Below, one piece after another: positions 48,357-54,806 of a DNA stretch of 64,000 nt (position 1 is the stretch's first letter; each line of letters begins with the position of its first letter). The notes beneath the pieces were generated by a model. It searched no databases, was not told the origin of the DNA, and worked only from the letters and a program-made list of their open reading frames with translations. The position numbers were made by a program, and so were the translations under genes. Source of the DNA: an uncultured Veillonellaceae bacterium (lineage in GTDB: Bacteria > Bacillota > Negativicutes > JARBTT01); contig CAWDTA010000004.1 of NCBI GenBank assembly GCA_963805085.1, forward strand, positions 192,001 through 256,000, in the 5' to 3' direction.

Positions 48357-49529
48357 ATGAGAAATTTTACTTCCTTAAAAGCAGCGCAATTTACCGAATC
48401 GGTTATTCGTGAAATGTCACGCGTCGCAAATGCAAACAAAGCAGTTAACTTAGCACAAGGGTTTCCTGATTTTCCCGCACCAGATGCGCTAAAAATTGCT
48501 GCTGCTAAAGCAATTTTTAATGACCACAACCAATATGCCATCACTTGGGGTACTAAGGAACTTCGTGATGCTCTCGTTGGCAAAATTGAACGCGACTACA
48601 ATACAACCCTTGACCCCGAAAAACAAATCACGGTTTGCTGCGGAGCGACGGAAGGTATGATTGCCACATTACTTGCGACCATTAATCCTGGCGATGAAGT
48701 AATCATCTTTGAACCATTCTATGAAAATTATGGCGCCGATGTCATCCTTTGCGGAGCAACTCCTCGTTACATAACGTTAGAAGCACCAAATTATGTACTT
48801 GATAAAGAAAAACTAGCAAGTCTTTTCAATGAAAAAACTCGGGCAATTATTTTAAATACACCTAACAATCCAACTGGTAAAGTATTTACCTTAGGAGAAA
48901 CACAATTTATCGCTGATCTTTGCCAACAATACGATGCTTTAGCCATCAGCGATGAAATTTACGAACATATTGTATTCGATGGTACGAAACATATTCCGAT
49001 TTGGACGCTACCAAATATGTTTGAACGATCGATTGCCGTCAATAGTGTTTCTAAAACGTATAGTGTAACTGGTTGGCGGATTGGCTTTGTTACAGCTTCA
49101 CCTGAACTTACAGCATCTATCCGCAAGGTACATGATTTCCTAACGGTCGGGGCAGCAGCTCCGCTTCAAATGGCAATTGCCGAAGCTTTTAATTTCGGTC
49201 AAGATTATTATGATCAGCTCAGTGCCTTTTACTTAGAGCGCCGCGACTTTATGCTTAAGGTGTTAAATGATGTTGGCTTTCAATGTATTGTTCCCCATGG
49301 CGCTTATTACATCATGGCCGATATCACGAACTTTGGCTACGAAGATGATGTTGACTTTGCTTTTTACCTAGCTGAAAAAATTGGCGTAGCGGTAGTTCCC
49401 GGCTCGACTTTTTATCGCGCTAATATGCCTGACGGCAAAAAATATGTCCGCTTCTGCTTTTGTAAAGAATATACAACACTCCAAGCAGCTGCTGGTCGTT
49501 TAGCTAAATTAAAAGGTTATAAAAAATAA
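48357..49529 (+). CDS. PLP-dependent class I aminotransferase (YbdL/kynurenine aminotransferase-like)
   Basis: NLAQGFPDF, NTPNNPTGK, DEIYEH, SVSKTYSVTGWRIG. Confidence 0.88.
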   Translation: MRNFTSLKAAQFTESVIREMSRVANANKAVNLAQGFPDFPAPDALKIAAAKAIFNDHNQYAITWGTKELRDALVGKIERDYNTTLDPEKQITVCCGATEGMIATLLATINPGDEVIIFEPFYENYGADVILCGATPRYITLEAPNYVLDKEKLASLFNEKTRAIILNTPNNPTGKVFTLGETQFIADLCQQYDALAISDEIYEHIVFDGTKHIPIWTLPNMFERSIAVNSVSKTYSVTGWRIGFVTASPELTASIRKVHDFLTVGAAAPLQMAIAEAFNFGQDYYDQLSAFYLERRDFMLKVLNDVGFQCIVPHGAYYIMADITNFGYEDDVDFAFYLAEKIGVAVVPGSTFYRANMPDGKKYVRFCFCKEYTTLQAAAGRLAKLKGYKK

Positions 49530-49577
49530 AGACAAATGCCTAGCGAGTTTTATCTCTGCTAAGCATTTGTTTTCTTT

Positions 49578-49940
49578 TTATATGCCATCACCGTACAGCC
49601 CTTGTAAATCTTCAAAACGATGTTTTTCTAACTTTTCAATTTGTGCCACTTTATAATCCTTAATATTGATACTGATTTGCCCAAACTTAATATCTTTTAA
49701 ATAGCAATTTAACTTCTTACGTAAATTTTCATGAATCTGCTTGTTTGATAAAGTTCTTTTTTCTTTCTTTTTGCTGATGCTGGCAGCATCCAAACGAAAT
49801 TTTTCTGTTTTTTCAAATTGAATAAGACGTCCATCTTGAACTGTCAAAATTACCGTACCATAGCCTGTATCTATCACTTCATCTTCAATCAAAGTCCAAG
49901 CTTCTCCCGATATGATCAATGCAATCTCACCACCAAACAC
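49578..49940 (-). CDS. Tandem YezD/DUF2292 (OscA-like) domain protein with C-terminal YGDGI
   Basis: Two copies of the [YF]G.[VI].[LI].[VI].D.+[LV].Q.EK.EK.R[LF] pattern; own promoter TTGAAA-17-TAGTAT (50000-50028); the true start may be TTG at 49919. Confidence 0.75.
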   Translation of the reverse strand: MFGGEIALIISGEAWTLIEDEVIDTGYGTVILTVQDGRLIQFEKTEKFRLDAASISKKKEKRTLSNKQIHENLRKKLNCYLKDIKFGQISINIKDYKVAQIEKLEKHRFEDLQGLYGDGI

Positions 49941-50046
49941 TTCGTTTTTAAATTACATAGAAAGTTCCCGTAAAATGTTCCTTTTTTACATTTATAGGTA
50001 TACTATCATATAAAGCCATTTTTTTCAATTGGATCTATCAATGATT

Positions 50047-50910
50047 CTATAATGCGGTTTTTAACTTTTCGGTAAACTCCGCCCAACCAATACGCTCAAG
50101 CATCGTATAGAAACGTTCTTTCTTTTTGCCATTGGCTGCAAAATAGTCAAGTGTGATATCGATTACTTTATAAACCTCTTCAACACTAAATACTATTGGT
50201 ATAATTTTCTTACCAATAGCGATGGTATTGCCAAATAAACCGCCAAAATAAATTACAAATCCTTCTCGCCCTGTCCAGGACTTTCTCGGACAAATCTTAA
50301 CGCATTTGCCGCATTGTACACATTTATTTTCATTATAGTTTAATGTTTTTTTATTTTTATTTACGCGAATTGCTTTTCCTGGGCAGACTTTTACACAAGC
50401 GCTACAATAAACACAGTCGTCTTCCGACCACGCTGGCTGTAATCCACCTTTAATACCAATATCATTGATATCAGCTTTCAGGCAATTATTTCTACAGCCA
50501 GTAACACCAATTTTGATCTTATGTGGCAACTCACGACCATAACAACGTTTGTCAATTTCATCGGCAAGTGCTATCGTGTCAACATGCCCATGCTGACAAA
50601 CAGCATTTCCTTGACAGGCCGTTACCGTTCTAACTCTTGACCCACATACGCCAATTTGAACTTCACCATCTGCTAGTGCAGCTTTAAAAGCTTCGATATC
50701 TTCCAATTTGATATAGGGTATTTCCACGCTTTGTCTGGAAGTAATATGCACATAACCTTTGCCATATTTTTCAGCCGCTTCACTGATGGTCTGCAACTGC
50801 TTAGCAGTAATTTGTCCGCCGATCACCCTCAATCTTACCGAAAAATGATCTGCCTGATTTTGTAACATAAATCCATTGCTTTTTAAATTTTTATAATCAA
50901 CTTGTACCAT
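50047..50910 (-). CDS. Siroheme sulfite/nitrite reductase-like protein with a 2x[4Fe-4S] ferredoxin insert (AsrC/Dsr-like)
   Basis: VHITSRQSVE, ACQGNAVC, KIKIGVTGCRNNC, two CxxCxxCxxxCP motifs, KKERF..MLERIG. Confidence 0.85.
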   Translation of the reverse strand: MVQVDYKNLKSNGFMLQNQADHFSVRLRVIGGQITAKQLQTISEAAEKYGKGYVHITSRQSVEIPYIKLEDIEAFKAALADGEVQIGVCGSRVRTVTACQGNAVCQHGHVDTIALADEIDKRCYGRELPHKIKIGVTGCRNNCLKADINDIGIKGGLQPAWSEDDCVYCSACVKVCPGKAIRVNKNKKTLNYNENKCVQCGKCVKICPRKSWTGREGFVIYFGGLFGNTIAIGKKIIPIVFSVEEVYKVIDITLDYFAANGKKKERFYTMLERIGWAEFTEKLKTAL

Positions 50911-50952
50911 AAAAATTCTCCTTTATCTTATATTTTCAAAAACGCCAACACC

Positions 50953-51012
50953 AAAAAGGCAAAAGAGACAGAATTACACCTGTTATCTTTTGCCTTCAGT
51001 TATCTGATCAGC
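50953..51012 (-). promoter_or_regulatory. Leader element 1: 21-nt hairpin overlapping an intrinsic terminator
   Basis: GCTGATCAGATAACTGAAGGC, then AAAAGA..TCTTTTGCCTTTTT; promoter TTGACA-17-TAAATT at 51039-51067. Confidence 0.7.
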
Positions 51013-51246
51013 TAAATATTGAATTTACTATTTCATCTAATTTACTAGTTTTTTATTGATTTGTCAATATAAAGATTACATTTCACCTTACTTCTTTATG
51101 AAAAATTCTATTCTATATTGTTTTGACTATATAGTAAAATACATTTGTAGTTAATCCAACAACACTTGCGGTTATATTAAAAGGCAATTGTACAAGCTCG
51201 GTGCTTTCATTAATATTGCTGACAATCATCCAATTTTAGAAATAAC

Positions 51247-51305
51247 AAAAGGCAAAAAATATAAGGTCATTTCTTATATCTTCTGCCTTCAGCTTTCCGA
51301 TCAGC
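51247..51305 (-). promoter_or_regulatory. Leader element 2: 21-nt hairpin overlapping an intrinsic terminator
   Basis: GCTGATCGGAAAGCTGAAGGC, then AGAAGATATAAG..CTTATATTTTTTGCCTTTTG. Confidence 0.7.
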
Positions 51306-51395
51306 TAAATATTAAATTGGTTATCTTAAATTACGTTAAATATAATTCCGTTCATGAGAGCTAACTATCATTTAGTGATTTCGTTAAAGCAAATT

Positions 51396-51473
51396 TTATT
51401 TAGGTGCAATAGCAGTCACAAAAGTAAGCACCAATAATATTGCCATAATTCCATAATTTGTCTTTTGATTCAT
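51396..51473 (-). pseudogene. 25-aa signal-peptide-like ORF, probably the remnant of a deleted exported protein gene
   Basis: AAGGAGG RBS then MNQKTNYGIMAILLVLTFVTAIAPK*, directly after leader element 3. Confidence 0.45.
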
Positions 51474-51495
51474 AAGAAATACCCTCCTTGATAAT

Positions 51496-51556
51496 AAAAA
51501 GACAAAAGTAATAGATTCTAAAATCTATTGCCTTTGCCTTTAGATTTCTAATCAGC
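51496..51556 (-). promoter_or_regulatory. Leader element 3: 21-nt hairpin overlapping an intrinsic terminator
   Basis: GCTGATTAGAAATCTAAAGGC, then AAAGGCAATAGATT..AATCTATTACTTTTGTCTTTTT; consensus TTGACA-17-TATAAT at 51583-51611. Confidence 0.7.
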
Positions 51557-51854
51557 AAACCGCACTGTTTATTGATTTTTATATTATAATCCATTTTCAT
51601 AATTTTGTCAAGTATTTTTATAATTCAAGTGTGTGAATGATATACGATAATGTCCTATTATACAGTTTTTGATTATGTCCCAATCCACATGATATACTGT
51701 AGCCTTATTCAGAAAATATAGAATGTTACAGTTTTTTATTTATCTATTGTTTTTTTCCTTTTTTGTGTTAATATTATTGATTATACAATTAACTATATTT
51801 GGAATAAATATTAGTTAATACGTCATTAACAATATTAATAAGGAGGATTTTCTT

Positions 51855-52708
51855 ATGCAAATTTTAAGCAAAAACTTCCTATATATTCATTTGGTCGTTT
51901 TATTCTTTGCATTTTCTAGTTTATTTGGTGAGCTAATAACGTTACCAGCTCTTGCCATAATATTGGGTAGAGTCTTTTTTTCTTCGGCATTCCTATTTAT
52001 ATTCTCTCAATATAATAAAGAAACATTACGGTTTTCCAAGCGGATTAATCATGCCTATCTTGCTTTAATGGGGATTATCCTAGTGATTCATTGGGCAACA
52101 TTCTTTCAATCAGTGCAGCTGTCTACAGTCGCCATTGGCCTGCTGACGTTTTCCATCTTTCCTTTACTCGTACCTTATATGGAAAACTTCTTTTTAAAGA
52201 AAAGCTCAAACTCTCTGATATTATCATGGCAAACATCATGTTCTGCGGTATTTTATTGATATTACCAAACTTTGAAATACCCAATGCCACCATCCAAGGA
52301 ATACTTTACGGTTCTATCGCTGGTTTTACTTATGCAAATTTATCCTTGATTAACCGTAAATGTGTAAAAGAGTATTGTAGCCTCGTGATCTCGCTCTATG
52401 AGCAGGCAGTGGCAACGACATTTCTACTACCATTTCTTTTTATTGAAACACCTAAATTTACAATAAATGATATTTTATTACTCATGATTTTAGGTACAAT
52501 TTTGACAGGTATTGCACATGCATTATTTATTCATGGCTGGAAAAGTATTTGCGCTAAAACATCAGGTATGGTCACTTATTTTGAACCCATTTACGGAATC
52601 ATCATTGCTACAATGACGATTCAAGCAATTCCTACTGTTAATGAGATGTTTGGTGCCGTTATCATACTAAGCACTGTACTCTATCATTCCTTTAATCAAA
52701 GAGCTTAA
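51855..52708 (+). pseudogene. EamA/DMT transporter split by a 1-nt frameshift
   Basis: N-terminal half ..PYMENF joins C-terminal half FKEKLKLSD.. if the T5 run at 52191-52195 were T6. Confidence 0.7.
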
Positions 52709-52725
52709 GATTCGTTATTAAACGC

Positions 52726-52766
52726 AAAAATTCCGTAGTGTATGTTCGGCACTACGGAATTTTTTT
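52726..52766. terminator. Bidirectional terminator
   Basis: AAAAATTCCGTAGTG..CACTACGGAATTTTTTT. Confidence 0.8.
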
Positions 52767-53396
52767 ATTTAAGCATAAGTCACAAACTAAATTAAAATAA
52801 CAAAATTGTACAAAAAGCCAACACATAGTGTAGGCTCACTTGAATCTTGACTTTTTGTATCTTCGTTGGTGTATTTTATCGAATTATTCGAAACAAACAA
52901 AGCATTAGCAATCATTAATTGCAATTATTTTTTATTAATCAATATTTATAGTTTACCTATTAGGAGTGGTTTTGTCAATAAACAAAAGTGTTTTTTTATG
53001 TATTTTTCTTGAACACTTTACCTATGAAATTTCAATAACTCTTTACTAAACATTACAATGGTAAGAAAAGTAAAAAAAAGCTAGCAAATCTGCTAGCTTT
53101 TATTTTGGGTTGTTTTTATGGAAACCTGAGCTACAAATTAAAGCGTACAAGGCAAGTACGCTATGTATTTCAGGAATATCAAAAATTTATTTATTGGATA
53201 TTTAGATTATTATTATTTATTAGCGCCTATCTATTAAATAACTTATATTAATAGATTAATACTTATATGCAAGTTTGTCAACAACTAATTATAATAATAG
53301 TTAATGGTTTTATCTAGTAGTAATTAGTTTTATTAATTGTAATACTTATACTAAATAAGCTATTTAATAAAAATTATACAACATAAAAAACTATTT

Positions 53397-54806
53397 TTAC
53401 CAAAGTCCAAGTACTTTCCACCATGCACCGCCAATACCTAACCAAATTACTACGTTAAGAGTAGTAAGAATGAAACCAAGTTTCCACCATTCACCTTGTG
53501 TTACATAGCCTGCACCGAATATGATCGGACCTGCAGCGCCACCGAAGTGTGTTAACGGAATCATAATGTTAGATAAAAATGCAAATGCTAAAGCTGCAAG
53601 AAGTGGTGGTGCGCCTGCGGCTACCGAAATTGCAAGGAATGCCGCGTACATTGCACTGATATGTGCTGTAACGCTTGCGAAGCCATAATGCGCATATACA
53701 TAGACAATGATTAATATAGAAAATGCAGCAATCCAAGATAAGCCTGCGGCTGCGATTATTACACCTGCTGATTTAGCAATCCAAGCGATAAAACCTGATT
53801 TTTCAAGAGCAGTTGCCAATGCAATCAGTGCCCCCATCCAGAACATTGTATCCCAAGCGCCTTTTTCTTGGAGAATGTCTTGCCATGTGAGTGCATTAAA
53901 AACAACCATAACACAGACAGCCATCATTGCTACAACAGTTGCATTTATATGTGTAATATCAGAAGTTGCCCAGAGAACCAATGCACCAACGAATACACAA
54001 GCAACAATTTTTTCAATGGTTGTCATCGGTCCCATGATTCCAAGCTCTTTTTCCGCCAAACCTTTTGCATCTGGCATCGCTTTGATTTCCGGTGGATACA
54101 GTTTGTAAAGAACATATGGCATAACTAGAAGCGAAATCACCCCTGGAACAAAAGCCGCAACAGCCCAAGAATTCCAAGTTAATTGCACACCGATTGTTTT
54201 TGCTGCAAGCTCTGCAGAAAGTGGATTACCAGCCATTGCAGTTAAGAACATTGCGCAAGTGATTGCATTTGCATGGTATTCAACCTGCATGATATAAGCA
54301 CCAAACTTACGAGCAGTAGGCCCAGGTTCAGAGCCTAATGCAGATGAAAGACTTTTTATAATCGGGAATATAATCCCACCGGCACGCGCTGCACTGGAAG
54401 GTGTTGCTGGAGAAATAACGAAATCACTCAAGGTGATTGCATAGCCAAGTGTTAAGGAAGATCTACCAATTAATTTAATAATAACGAAAGCAATTCTTCT
54501 ACCAAGACCGCTCTTGATAAAGCCACGAGCAAATAAAAAAGCACAAATGATAAGCCAAATCGTACTATTACCAAAGCCAGCAAGTGCTTCATCTAGCTTC
54601 AATGTATTAGAAAATGCCGAGAAGGTAACAGAAATTAATGCAATTGCTCCGATTGGCAATGGTTGTAAAATAAAGCCTAGAATTGTTGCAGCAAAGATTG
54701 CAAATAAATGCCACGCTGTTACTTTTAACCCTTCTGGCACGGGACAGAACCAAAGGATGATACCAAACGCAAGCACTATTGCTGCATTACGAGTGTTTTT
54801 ATTCAT
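53397..54806 (-). CDS. DASS family di/tricarboxylate transporter (CitT/TtdT-like)
   Basis: KSGLGRRIA, TPSSAARAGG, FLTAMAGNPL, FASVTAH, WWKVLGLW. Confidence 0.9.
   Translation of the reverse strand: MNKNTRNAAIVLAFGIILWFCPVPEGLKVTAWHLFAIFAATILGFILQPLPIGAIALISVTFSAFSNTLKLDEALAGFGNSTIWLIICAFLFARGFIKSGLGRRIAFVIIKLIGRSSLTLGYAITLSDFVISPATPSSAARAGGIIFPIIKSLSSALGSEPGPTARKFGAYIMQVEYHANAITCAMFLTAMAGNPLSAELAAKTIGVQLTWNSWAVAAFVPGVISLLVMPYVLYKLYPPEIKAMPDAKGLAEKELGIMGPMTTIEKIVACVFVGALVLWATSDITHINATVVAMMAVCVMVVFNALTWQDILQEKGAWDTMFWMGALIALATALEKSGFIAWIAKSAGVIIAAAGLSWIAAFSILIIVYVYAHYGFASVTAHISAMYAAFLAISVAAGAPPLLAALAFAFLSNIMIPLTHFGGAAGPIIFGAGYVTQGEWWKLGFILTTLNVVIWLGIGGAWWKVLGLW

Follow-up and report, generated by a model that had tools for sequence, protein, structure and literature searches.

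In a 64,000-nucleotide stretch of DNA from an uncultured Veillonellaceae bacterium of the class Negativicutes (assembly GCA_963805085.1, contig CAWDTA010000004.1, forward-strand positions 192,001 to 256,000; hereafter the window, numbered from its first letter), a short segment of the minus strand carries three copies of a 21-nt RNA hairpin, each of which shares bases with an intrinsic terminator that follows it. The genes linked to this hairpin, in the window and in other genomes of the Bacillota, include those for sulfite reductases, sulfur-compound transporters, cysteine synthase (CysK) and a family of small uncharacterized proteins, YezD/DUF2292. Comparison of these loci leads us to regard the element, with high confidence, as a sulfur-responsive antiterminator hairpin of a transcription attenuator.

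Organization of the locus

A pattern search of the window with the hairpin motif returned exactly three matches, all on the minus strand, at 50992-51012 (copy 1), 51285-51305 (copy 2) and 51536-51556 (copy 3), with the sequences that an earlier reading of the bare DNA (the sequence-only reading) had written out; no match occurred in 100 dinucleotide-preserving shuffles of the window. Folded alone, all three 21-mers have the same minimum free energy structure, in which an outer stem of 3 bp (positions 1-3 with 19-21) and an inner stem of 4 bp (6-9 with 14-17) are separated by an asymmetric internal loop, two bases on its 5' side vs. one on its 3' side, and capped by a loop of 4 nt. The inner stem is UCAG/CUGA in copy 1 (the commonest form; -5.0 kcal/mol), UCGG/CUGA with one G-U pair in copy 2 (-4.5 kcal/mol) and UUAG/CUAA in copy 3 (-3.1 kcal/mol).

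Read along the minus strand, on which all features of this segment lie, the locus opens with promoter P3 (51583..51611; TTGACA, 17-nt spacer, TATAAT), which matches the consensus at 12/12 positions and whose -10 hexamer ends 26 nt before copy 3. The 5' arm of terminator 3 (51491..51541; stem 51498-51541 followed by a U-run) starts at position 16 of copy 3, and the first gene past it is a small hydrophobic open reading frame (ORF) of 24 codons plus stop (51397..51474), with a strong Shine-Dalgarno sequence and no Pfam family. Next comes copy 2 with terminator 2 (51240..51290; an 18-bp stem at 51248-51290 and a U-run), the 5' arm of which again begins at motif position 16; this copy lacks a good promoter (best score, 9/12) and is probably read from P3. 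Promoter P1 (51039..51067; TTGACA, 17-nt spacer, TAAATT; 10/12 consensus) serves copy 1, followed by terminator 1 (50949..50997; stem 50955-50997 and a U-run, 5' arm from position 16 of copy 1). A scan for promoters, combined with these coordinates, bears out the observation of the sequence-only reading that copies 1 and 3 are equidistant (26 nt) from the -10 hexamers of promoters with a TTGACA box and a 17-nt spacer. Two genes lie past copy 1. One is the regulated gene, a small sulfite/nitrite-reductase-type gene with a ferredoxin insert (50047..50910; NIR_SIR, NIR_SIR_ferr and Fer4). The other encodes a tandem DUF2292 (YezD-family) protein of 120 aa (49578..49940; PF10055, E 4.6e-20) with the C-terminus Tyr-Gly-Asp-Gly-Ile, which we consider as the candidate trans-acting factor and CysK partner.

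The terminator stems after the three copies comprise 12-18 bp and are followed by a U-run. In each leader, the fold with the terminator is more stable than the fold in which the hairpin is enforced (-21.6 vs. -16.5 kcal/mol for leader 1, -23.8 vs. -14.5 kcal/mol for leader 2, and -19.6 vs. -13.0 kcal/mol for leader 3), and because the terminator prevails by 5-9 kcal/mol, the default state should be termination. The proposal that hairpin and terminator are mutually exclusive is supported by the folding of the leaders and with the bases that they have in common. The overlap itself, described earlier as the four bases AGGC, is present in each copy, although it extends over six bases, from motif position 16.

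Conservation of the RNA structure and of the attenuator layout

A class-wide pattern search, with four stem and two loop positions left free, was performed in 61 Negativicutes genomes. Pairing was then counted in 90 distinct pattern matches, namely, those in 30 loci returned by this search and those in 60 regions from 10 genomes, the latter picked by copy number and family spread and not by pairing. Both free stem positions pair in 79 of the 90; none of the 11 unpaired matches has a terminator, and all of them resemble coding sequence. At the first free position the pairs are C-G (57), U-A (22) and U-G (2), and at the next one A-U (62), G-C (10), C-G (5), U-A (5) and G-U (1); in the outer stem, changes of C2 to U and of U3 to C retain pairing with G20 and G19. 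The covariation of the inner stem, first proposed for the three window copies, is thus seen among homologs as both compensatory changes and wobble pairs. The hairpin alignment had been prefiltered for a paired inner stem, which makes its 99.5% of paired cells circular and leaves 79/90 as the unbiased count.

The general layout of the leaders is conserved as well. Among 173 loosely defined instances, a complementary arm and a T-run are found within 75 nt in 148, and a good promoter is found in 136, with the end of the -10 hexamer most often 17-30 nt upstream. The element consists of one hairpin, whose loop measures 4 nt in 157 instances and 5 nt in 16, and its orientation is always that of the downstream gene. 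Conservation is concentrated in the internal loop and its flanking pairs and in the pair that closes the hairpin loop; the hairpin loop itself and the terminator sequence vary freely.

These data bear on the possibility that the site is a DNA operator, i.e., an inverted repeat recognized by a CymR/Rrf2-type factor and located merely beside terminators. The inner stem is indeed an inverted repeat, and these genomes do contain CymR-like genes, which in some Bacilli come after the hairpin. Nevertheless, base identity changes while pairing is kept, and the predominant outer pair U3-G19 is a wobble that would be an A-C mismatch on the opposite strand, as would, likewise, the other G-U pairs of the hairpin be mismatches there; therefore, the structure exists only on the transcribed strand. 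Moreover, the site always lies downstream of the -10 hexamer, is oriented with the gene and shares six bases with the terminator arm. We consider the operator explanation highly improbable.

A recurring near-match of the motif was encountered inside conserved coding sequence (L044, L060, L086, L015, L033), with no terminator and with unpaired stem positions, and represents a useful false positive for the calibration of motif scans.

Distribution of the hairpin and composition of the regulon

The window's genome contains five clear copies of the hairpin. The two located outside the window precede a URO-D/MtaA-like methyltransferase gene with an amino-acid-binding protein gene and a sulfonate-type ATP-binding cassette (ABC) transporter, respectively. 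A diverged hairpin in the same genome (G000:C2:1540062-1540082, plus strand), with a different but all-pairing outer stem and a terminator overlap of only a base or two, sits upstream of a gene for a 535-aa ABC substrate-binding protein and may be a sixth copy.

Across the 61 Negativicutes genomes, the free-stem pattern yielded 188 matches and its reversed form 7. A covariance model, for which 78 hairpin instances were aligned, located the hairpin in 42 of the 61, with up to 27 matches per genome (Sporomusa/Pelosinus relatives are among the carriers of such high copy numbers), and also recovered 5-nt-loop variants that had been missed by the pattern. The commonest exact variant was additionally scanned across bacteria and archaea, each species being represented by a single genome. 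Among the matches listed are Negativicutes (Sporomusa, Pelosinus, Anaeroarcus, Massilibacillus), other Bacillota (Peribacillus, Fictibacillus, Niallia, Neobacillus, Lysinibacillus, Domibacillus, Halalkalibacter, Brevibacillus, Ectobacillus), as well as Heliobacterium and Syntrophomonas; the few rows from other phyla among them were set aside as chance matches in coding sequence or as questionable bins. In a sample of 121 Bacillales genomes, the covariance model had matches in 21, never more than two per genome; the hits L255, L256 and L263, which are the hits of two genomes, were judged false by eye (no stem or no terminator). The hairpin is a conserved element and not a local repeat.

The genes that follow the hairpin constitute a sulfur-acquisition and cysteine/methionine set. 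They include cysK; ABC transporters for cystine, methionine (NlpA), sulfonates and sulfate (Sbp/CysT); O-acetylhomoserine sulfhydrylase, cystathionine lyases, PatB C-S lyase and sulfite reductases; MtaA/CmuA-type methyltransferases with corrinoid proteins, and a RuBisCO-like protein; nitrogenase-like NifH/NifD homologues with DUF2325; and rhodanese, ThiS/ThiF, TauE, TauD, SsuD/SsuE-like enzymes and YezD itself. This regulon is large in Negativicutes and smaller in Bacilli. Two loci of genus g11 (L010, L064) carry the hairpin-terminator before genes for DUF2325, a NifH-like and a NifD-like protein, a set that we presume to be a possible nitrogenase-like reductase of sulfur salvage. At three Bacillales loci (L252, L257, L241), the operon behind it encodes a regulator of the Rrf2 family and, after that, a single-domain YezD. 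The regulators of L252 and L257 carry a cluster of three cysteines, which suggests an iron-sulfur type, and have no isoleucine tail.

Relation to known regulatory systems

The sequence-only reading had not recognized the hairpin as a member of a named family, and a covariance scan with Rfam 15 (E up to 10, window 49000-53500) likewise found no named family at the three sites. The scan returned only chance-level microRNA and small RNA rows over copy 3 (about 20-21 bits vs. gathering thresholds of 47-63) and no S-adenosylmethionine riboswitch (SAM-I) at the hairpin sites; the two SAM-I elements of the window's genome are located elsewhere.

The likeness to the ribonucleic antiterminator (RAT) sites of BglG, LicT and SacY, drawn in the sequence-only reading, holds for the mechanism and fails for family membership. 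Both are leader hairpins with an internal loop, the 3' side of which is the 5' arm of an intrinsic terminator. In RAT systems, a bound CAT-PRD protein prevents termination, and the hairpin is about 29 nt long, with two internal loops and the RAT consensus. In contrast, the hairpin of the window measures 21-22 nt, has one asymmetric internal loop and an unrelated conserved sequence, and targets sulfur genes rather than sugar phosphotransferase operons; no CAT/PRD regulator is encoded nearby, and none of the three CAT_RBD genes of the window's genome is near any of the five copies.

As we propose for the present element, an RNA-binding protein with metabolite sensing chooses between terminator and antiterminator in the TRAP, HutP, PyrR and ANTAR (EutV, NasR) systems. 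ANTAR targets consist of two tandem hairpins with hexanucleotide loops, the second of which overlaps the terminator. The window element differs in having neither a repeated triplet array nor a pair of hexaloop hairpins, and neither of the two ANTAR genes of the window's genome is near the hairpin sites. With the S-box (SAM-I) and the cysteine T-box it shares termination control and the gene set (cysK, metY, transporters and, in Bacilli, yezD); however, these aptamers and tRNA-binding leaders extend over 100-250 nt, vs. 21 nt for the whole sensor here.

The closest regulatory logic is that of CymR-CysK in Bacillus and Staphylococcus, which acts on DNA. According to passages in the literature on that system, a sulfur regulator docks its isoleucine tail in the CysK active site with O-acetylserine as the signal, which is what we propose for DUF2292. 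CymR is a DNA-binding Rrf2 repressor acting at promoters, whereas the present system would combine the tail of a tandem DUF2292 protein with an RNA hairpin that competes with a terminator.

A survey of premature terminators (Naville and Gautheret, 2010, PMC2965389) mentions an unnamed attenuator of bacilli that a sulfonate ABC operon has in common with a small uncharacterized gene. This is possibly the same element, although neither a structure or name nor a regulon or factor is given in that passage. An excerpt of a later study (Brewer et al., 2021, PMC8632094) reports no sulfur motif. In the searchable full-text literature (subscription papers and supplements lay outside the search), we found no description of the hairpin and no RNA role described for YezD/DUF2292. 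Thus, attenuation as such is a known principle, and what is apparently undescribed is the RNA motif, together with its regulon and with the protein and sensor proposed here.

Proposed mechanism of attenuation

Transcription of the leader would begin some 10-20 nt before the hairpin. This structure of 21 nt would form first, and its six 3' bases would then be needed by the far more stable terminator, which, without help, would win and leave the sulfur genes off. A trans-acting factor clamped onto the hairpin would deprive the terminator of its G+C-rich base adjacent to the U-run and allow RNA polymerase to read through; the loss of six G+C-rich base pairs beside the U-run should, judging from the established behavior of intrinsic terminators, abolish termination. 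Since the leader has room only for hairpin and terminator, and the hairpin is worse by 5-9 kcal/mol, something must hold the hairpin. The clustering of conserved bases at the internal loop and closing pair, with a variable loop and terminator, argues for a protein-binding antiterminator of the RAT kind.

The same features were weighed in terms of a very small riboswitch, in which the purine-rich internal loop would itself bind a metabolite reporting the sulfur status (e.g., O-acetylserine, cysteine, sulfide or sulfite) and thereby stabilize the antiterminator. This would account for invariant bases in and around the internal loop and at the loop-closing pair next to a variable loop, for leaders without room for anything else, and for an element that works with very different downstream genes in distant classes. 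Yet the hairpin is the only conserved part, the terminator sequences differing freely, and to our knowledge no validated aptamer is as small as 21-22 nt with 7 pairs; such a ligand would, moreover, have to overcome the 5-9 kcal/mol, and the tight co-occurrence of the hairpin with one small protein family would be left unexplained. We regard the riboswitch as improbable, if less so than the DNA operator.

For the protein-dependent antiterminator, we propose YezD as the factor and CysK as the sensor, at least in Negativicutes. Under sulfur sufficiency, with O-acetylserine low, the C-terminal tail of the tandem YezD would plug the CysK active site and YezD would be held inactive; under sulfur limitation, O-acetylserine would accumulate, and YezD would be freed from CysK and bind the hairpin. 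We infer the need for a trans-acting factor, its identity with YezD and the direction of the CysK/O-acetylserine control. The entire explanation (attenuator, YezD factor and CysK gate) stands, in our estimate, at about an even chance.

YezD/DUF2292 as the candidate factor

In the protein encoded at 49578-49940, PF10055 is matched in two stretches with 71.4 bits (gathering cut-off, 22). The fold predicted for this protein consists of a helix and a beta-hairpin, twice (mean predicted local distance difference test score, pLDDT, 69), and its closest named relative, among three close relatives found in a word-index protein search, is from Anaerosinus massiliensis, also of the Negativicutes. That YezD might bind the hairpin was a guess of the sequence-only reading, which now gains what we consider substantial support from comparative sequence data. 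Among the Negativicutes, 39 of the 42 genomes with the hairpin encode PF10055, vs. 3 of the 19 without it, counts that are not to be taken as probabilities since related genomes are not independent samples; two of the three hairpin-positive genomes without DUF2292 have marginal model hits only. By comparison, cysK is present in 59 of the 61. The association is repeated in a second class, with a YezD-like gene in 20/21 model-positive vs. 30/100 model-negative genomes of the Bacillales sample. Of all families encoded immediately upstream of the hairpin, YezD is the most frequent (12 ORFs, in 11 loci; 136 instances compared), and it is often the first gene regulated by the hairpin. Among 20 Bacillales genomes that carry no more than two hairpins, 9 have a YezD gene at a distance of 1 kb or less from one. 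On this comparative basis, we place the chances of YezD being the binder close to even, if slightly short of it.

Several observations weigh against this assignment. One genome (G043, 95% complete) has a strong hairpin and no DUF2292, and three of the 61 Negativicutes genomes (G033, G037, G046) have DUF2292 and no hairpin that we found; in eight Bacillales genomes with the hairpin, the only YezD subtype present is the one usually found unlinked to it. Hairpin and YezD could both simply track the capacity for sulfur assimilation. In some Bacilli, YezD is found behind apparent S-box riboswitches, as an ordinary sulfur-response gene would be, and a passage in the literature describes yezD of B. 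subtilis as repressed by CymR and Spx (PMC3479203); such placement would be no less typical of an ordinary member of the regulon than of a regulator. At the level of structure, the tandem DUF2292 model has no PDB match at E 0.001 or better by Foldseek, the ESM Atlas offered no named or usable cluster for the fold, and neither of these nor a PDB sequence search revealed any likeness of YezD to RNA-binding proteins in fold or sequence.

Part of this evidence fits a rival form of the protein-dependent antiterminator, in which a different protein binds the hairpin and YezD is a mere conserved member of the regulon, e.g., a regulator or partner of CysK without a role at the RNA. Control of YezD by the S-box or by CymR and Spx is what would be expected of a sulfur-response effector, and the lack of a recognizable RNA-binding fold, the G043 genome and the eight Bacillales genomes are all compatible with another binder. 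On the other hand, no other regulator-like family is enriched beside the 136 hairpin instances, the CAT_RBD and ANTAR genes of the window's genome are far from all copies, and the co-occurrence of DUF2292 with the hairpin is much tighter than that of cysK and recurs in the Bacillales. We consider another binder unlikely, though clearly less so than the riboswitch.

Two further observations concern this family. At three Bacillales loci (L230, L231, L232), a second YezD subtype is preceded by an apparent S-box (SAM-I) leader, as judged by eye. The PDB sequence search with DUF2292 gave a weak likeness to staphylococcal superantigen-like proteins (best E 0.0033), which is probably spurious.

Possible connection to cysteine synthase

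In 30 of 42 Negativicutes genomes, as read from the gene coordinates, no more than about 3 kb separate a DUF2292 gene from cysK, and the order DUF2292, hairpin-terminator, cysK occurs in at least 14 genomes. All nine aligned tandem DUF2292 proteins end in Gly-Asp/Glu-Gly-Ile. Among the 95 tandem-size representatives from a full HMMER search of 1.84 billion proteins, 70 have a C-terminal isoleucine, most of them within a Gly-Asp/Glu-Gly-Ile tail. Such an end recalls CysE, CymR and CdiA-CT, which, as stated in excerpts from two sources (bioRxiv 10.1101/2024.09.19.614015; PMC4961446), bind CysK through a C-terminal isoleucine in the active site, in competition with O-acetylserine. In five Negativicutes genomes (L266-L270: G027, G004, G032, G039, G000), CysE itself has no C-terminal isoleucine, and judging from its sequence the classical CysE-CysK complex may not form there.

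Complex prediction for CysK with the adjacent tandem DUF2292 protein gave weak support, with a score of 0.43 vs. 0.00 for the best of three controls, in a range (0.60 or under) that holds only 7 of 80 solved complexes and both of the mismatched pairs that passed, the mark itself being reached by 58/80 solved complexes and 2/110 mismatched pairs. Between runs, at least 59% of the contacts recur, and the partner pLDDT is 69 or higher. In the model of the tandem DUF2292 protein, the tail is the least confident part (mean pLDDT of 50 over the last 10 residues). The prediction may pass only by its likeness to solved complexes of CysK with tail peptides.

Two facts speak against this part of the explanation. 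The YezD proteins of Bacillales are single-domain and lack the isoleucine tail; therefore, the CysK gate cannot be general. Furthermore, the cysK gene of the window's genome has no hairpin and adjoins a divergent CymR-like gene. Taken together, a role of YezD as the hairpin partner with CysK/O-acetylserine as the signal in Negativicutes appears to us, from the sequences compared, nearly as likely to be right as wrong. More tentative is the broader proposition that YezD/DUF2292 constitutes a new family of RNA-binding antiterminators targeting the 21-nt hairpin, with the tandem form gated by an isoleucine tail in CysK, with a sulfur attenuation regulon spanning the Bacillota, and with one enzyme setting both transcription initiation and termination of sulfur genes.

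The CymR-like neighbor of cysK in the window's genome (G000:C2:243858-244304, plus strand) is an Rrf2 protein of 148 aa with an aromatic-rich tail ending in isoleucine, which resembles the CysK-binding tail of S. aureus CymR. Two different isoleucine-tailed proteins may, thus, compete for CysK in the source organism.

Implications

Control of sulfur genes in Firmicutes is currently explained by S-box riboswitches, T-boxes and CymR. The hairpin would add to these a fourth, widespread and very compact layer, and many Bacilli carry it before genes of sulfate and sulfonate uptake. The ssu leader of B. subtilis is reportedly under termination control (van der Ploeg and colleagues, in 2001); the hairpin may explain why ssu is controlled at termination as well as at initiation. 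The proposed involvement of YezD would provide the uncharacterized DUF2292 family of small proteins with a testable function, and CysK with a new moonlighting partner. A 21-nt module with a protein partner would, in addition, make a handy synthetic regulatory part.

Other features of the locus

A hydrophobic ORF of 25 codons, similar to the 24-codon ORF between copies 3 and 2 and likewise with a strong Shine-Dalgarno sequence, occupies the same place after the first hairpin-terminator in genome G004 (L069:1584-1661, plus strand). The central hydrophobic stretch is kept between the two in spite of amino-acid changes, and the ORF is probably a real gene for a small membrane peptide of the sulfur regulon. 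Divergently from P3, at 51855-52708 on the plus strand, two overlapping ORFs of 134 and 205 aa in different frames jointly resemble one EamA/DMT transporter, and may reflect a frameshift, a pseudogene or an assembly error.

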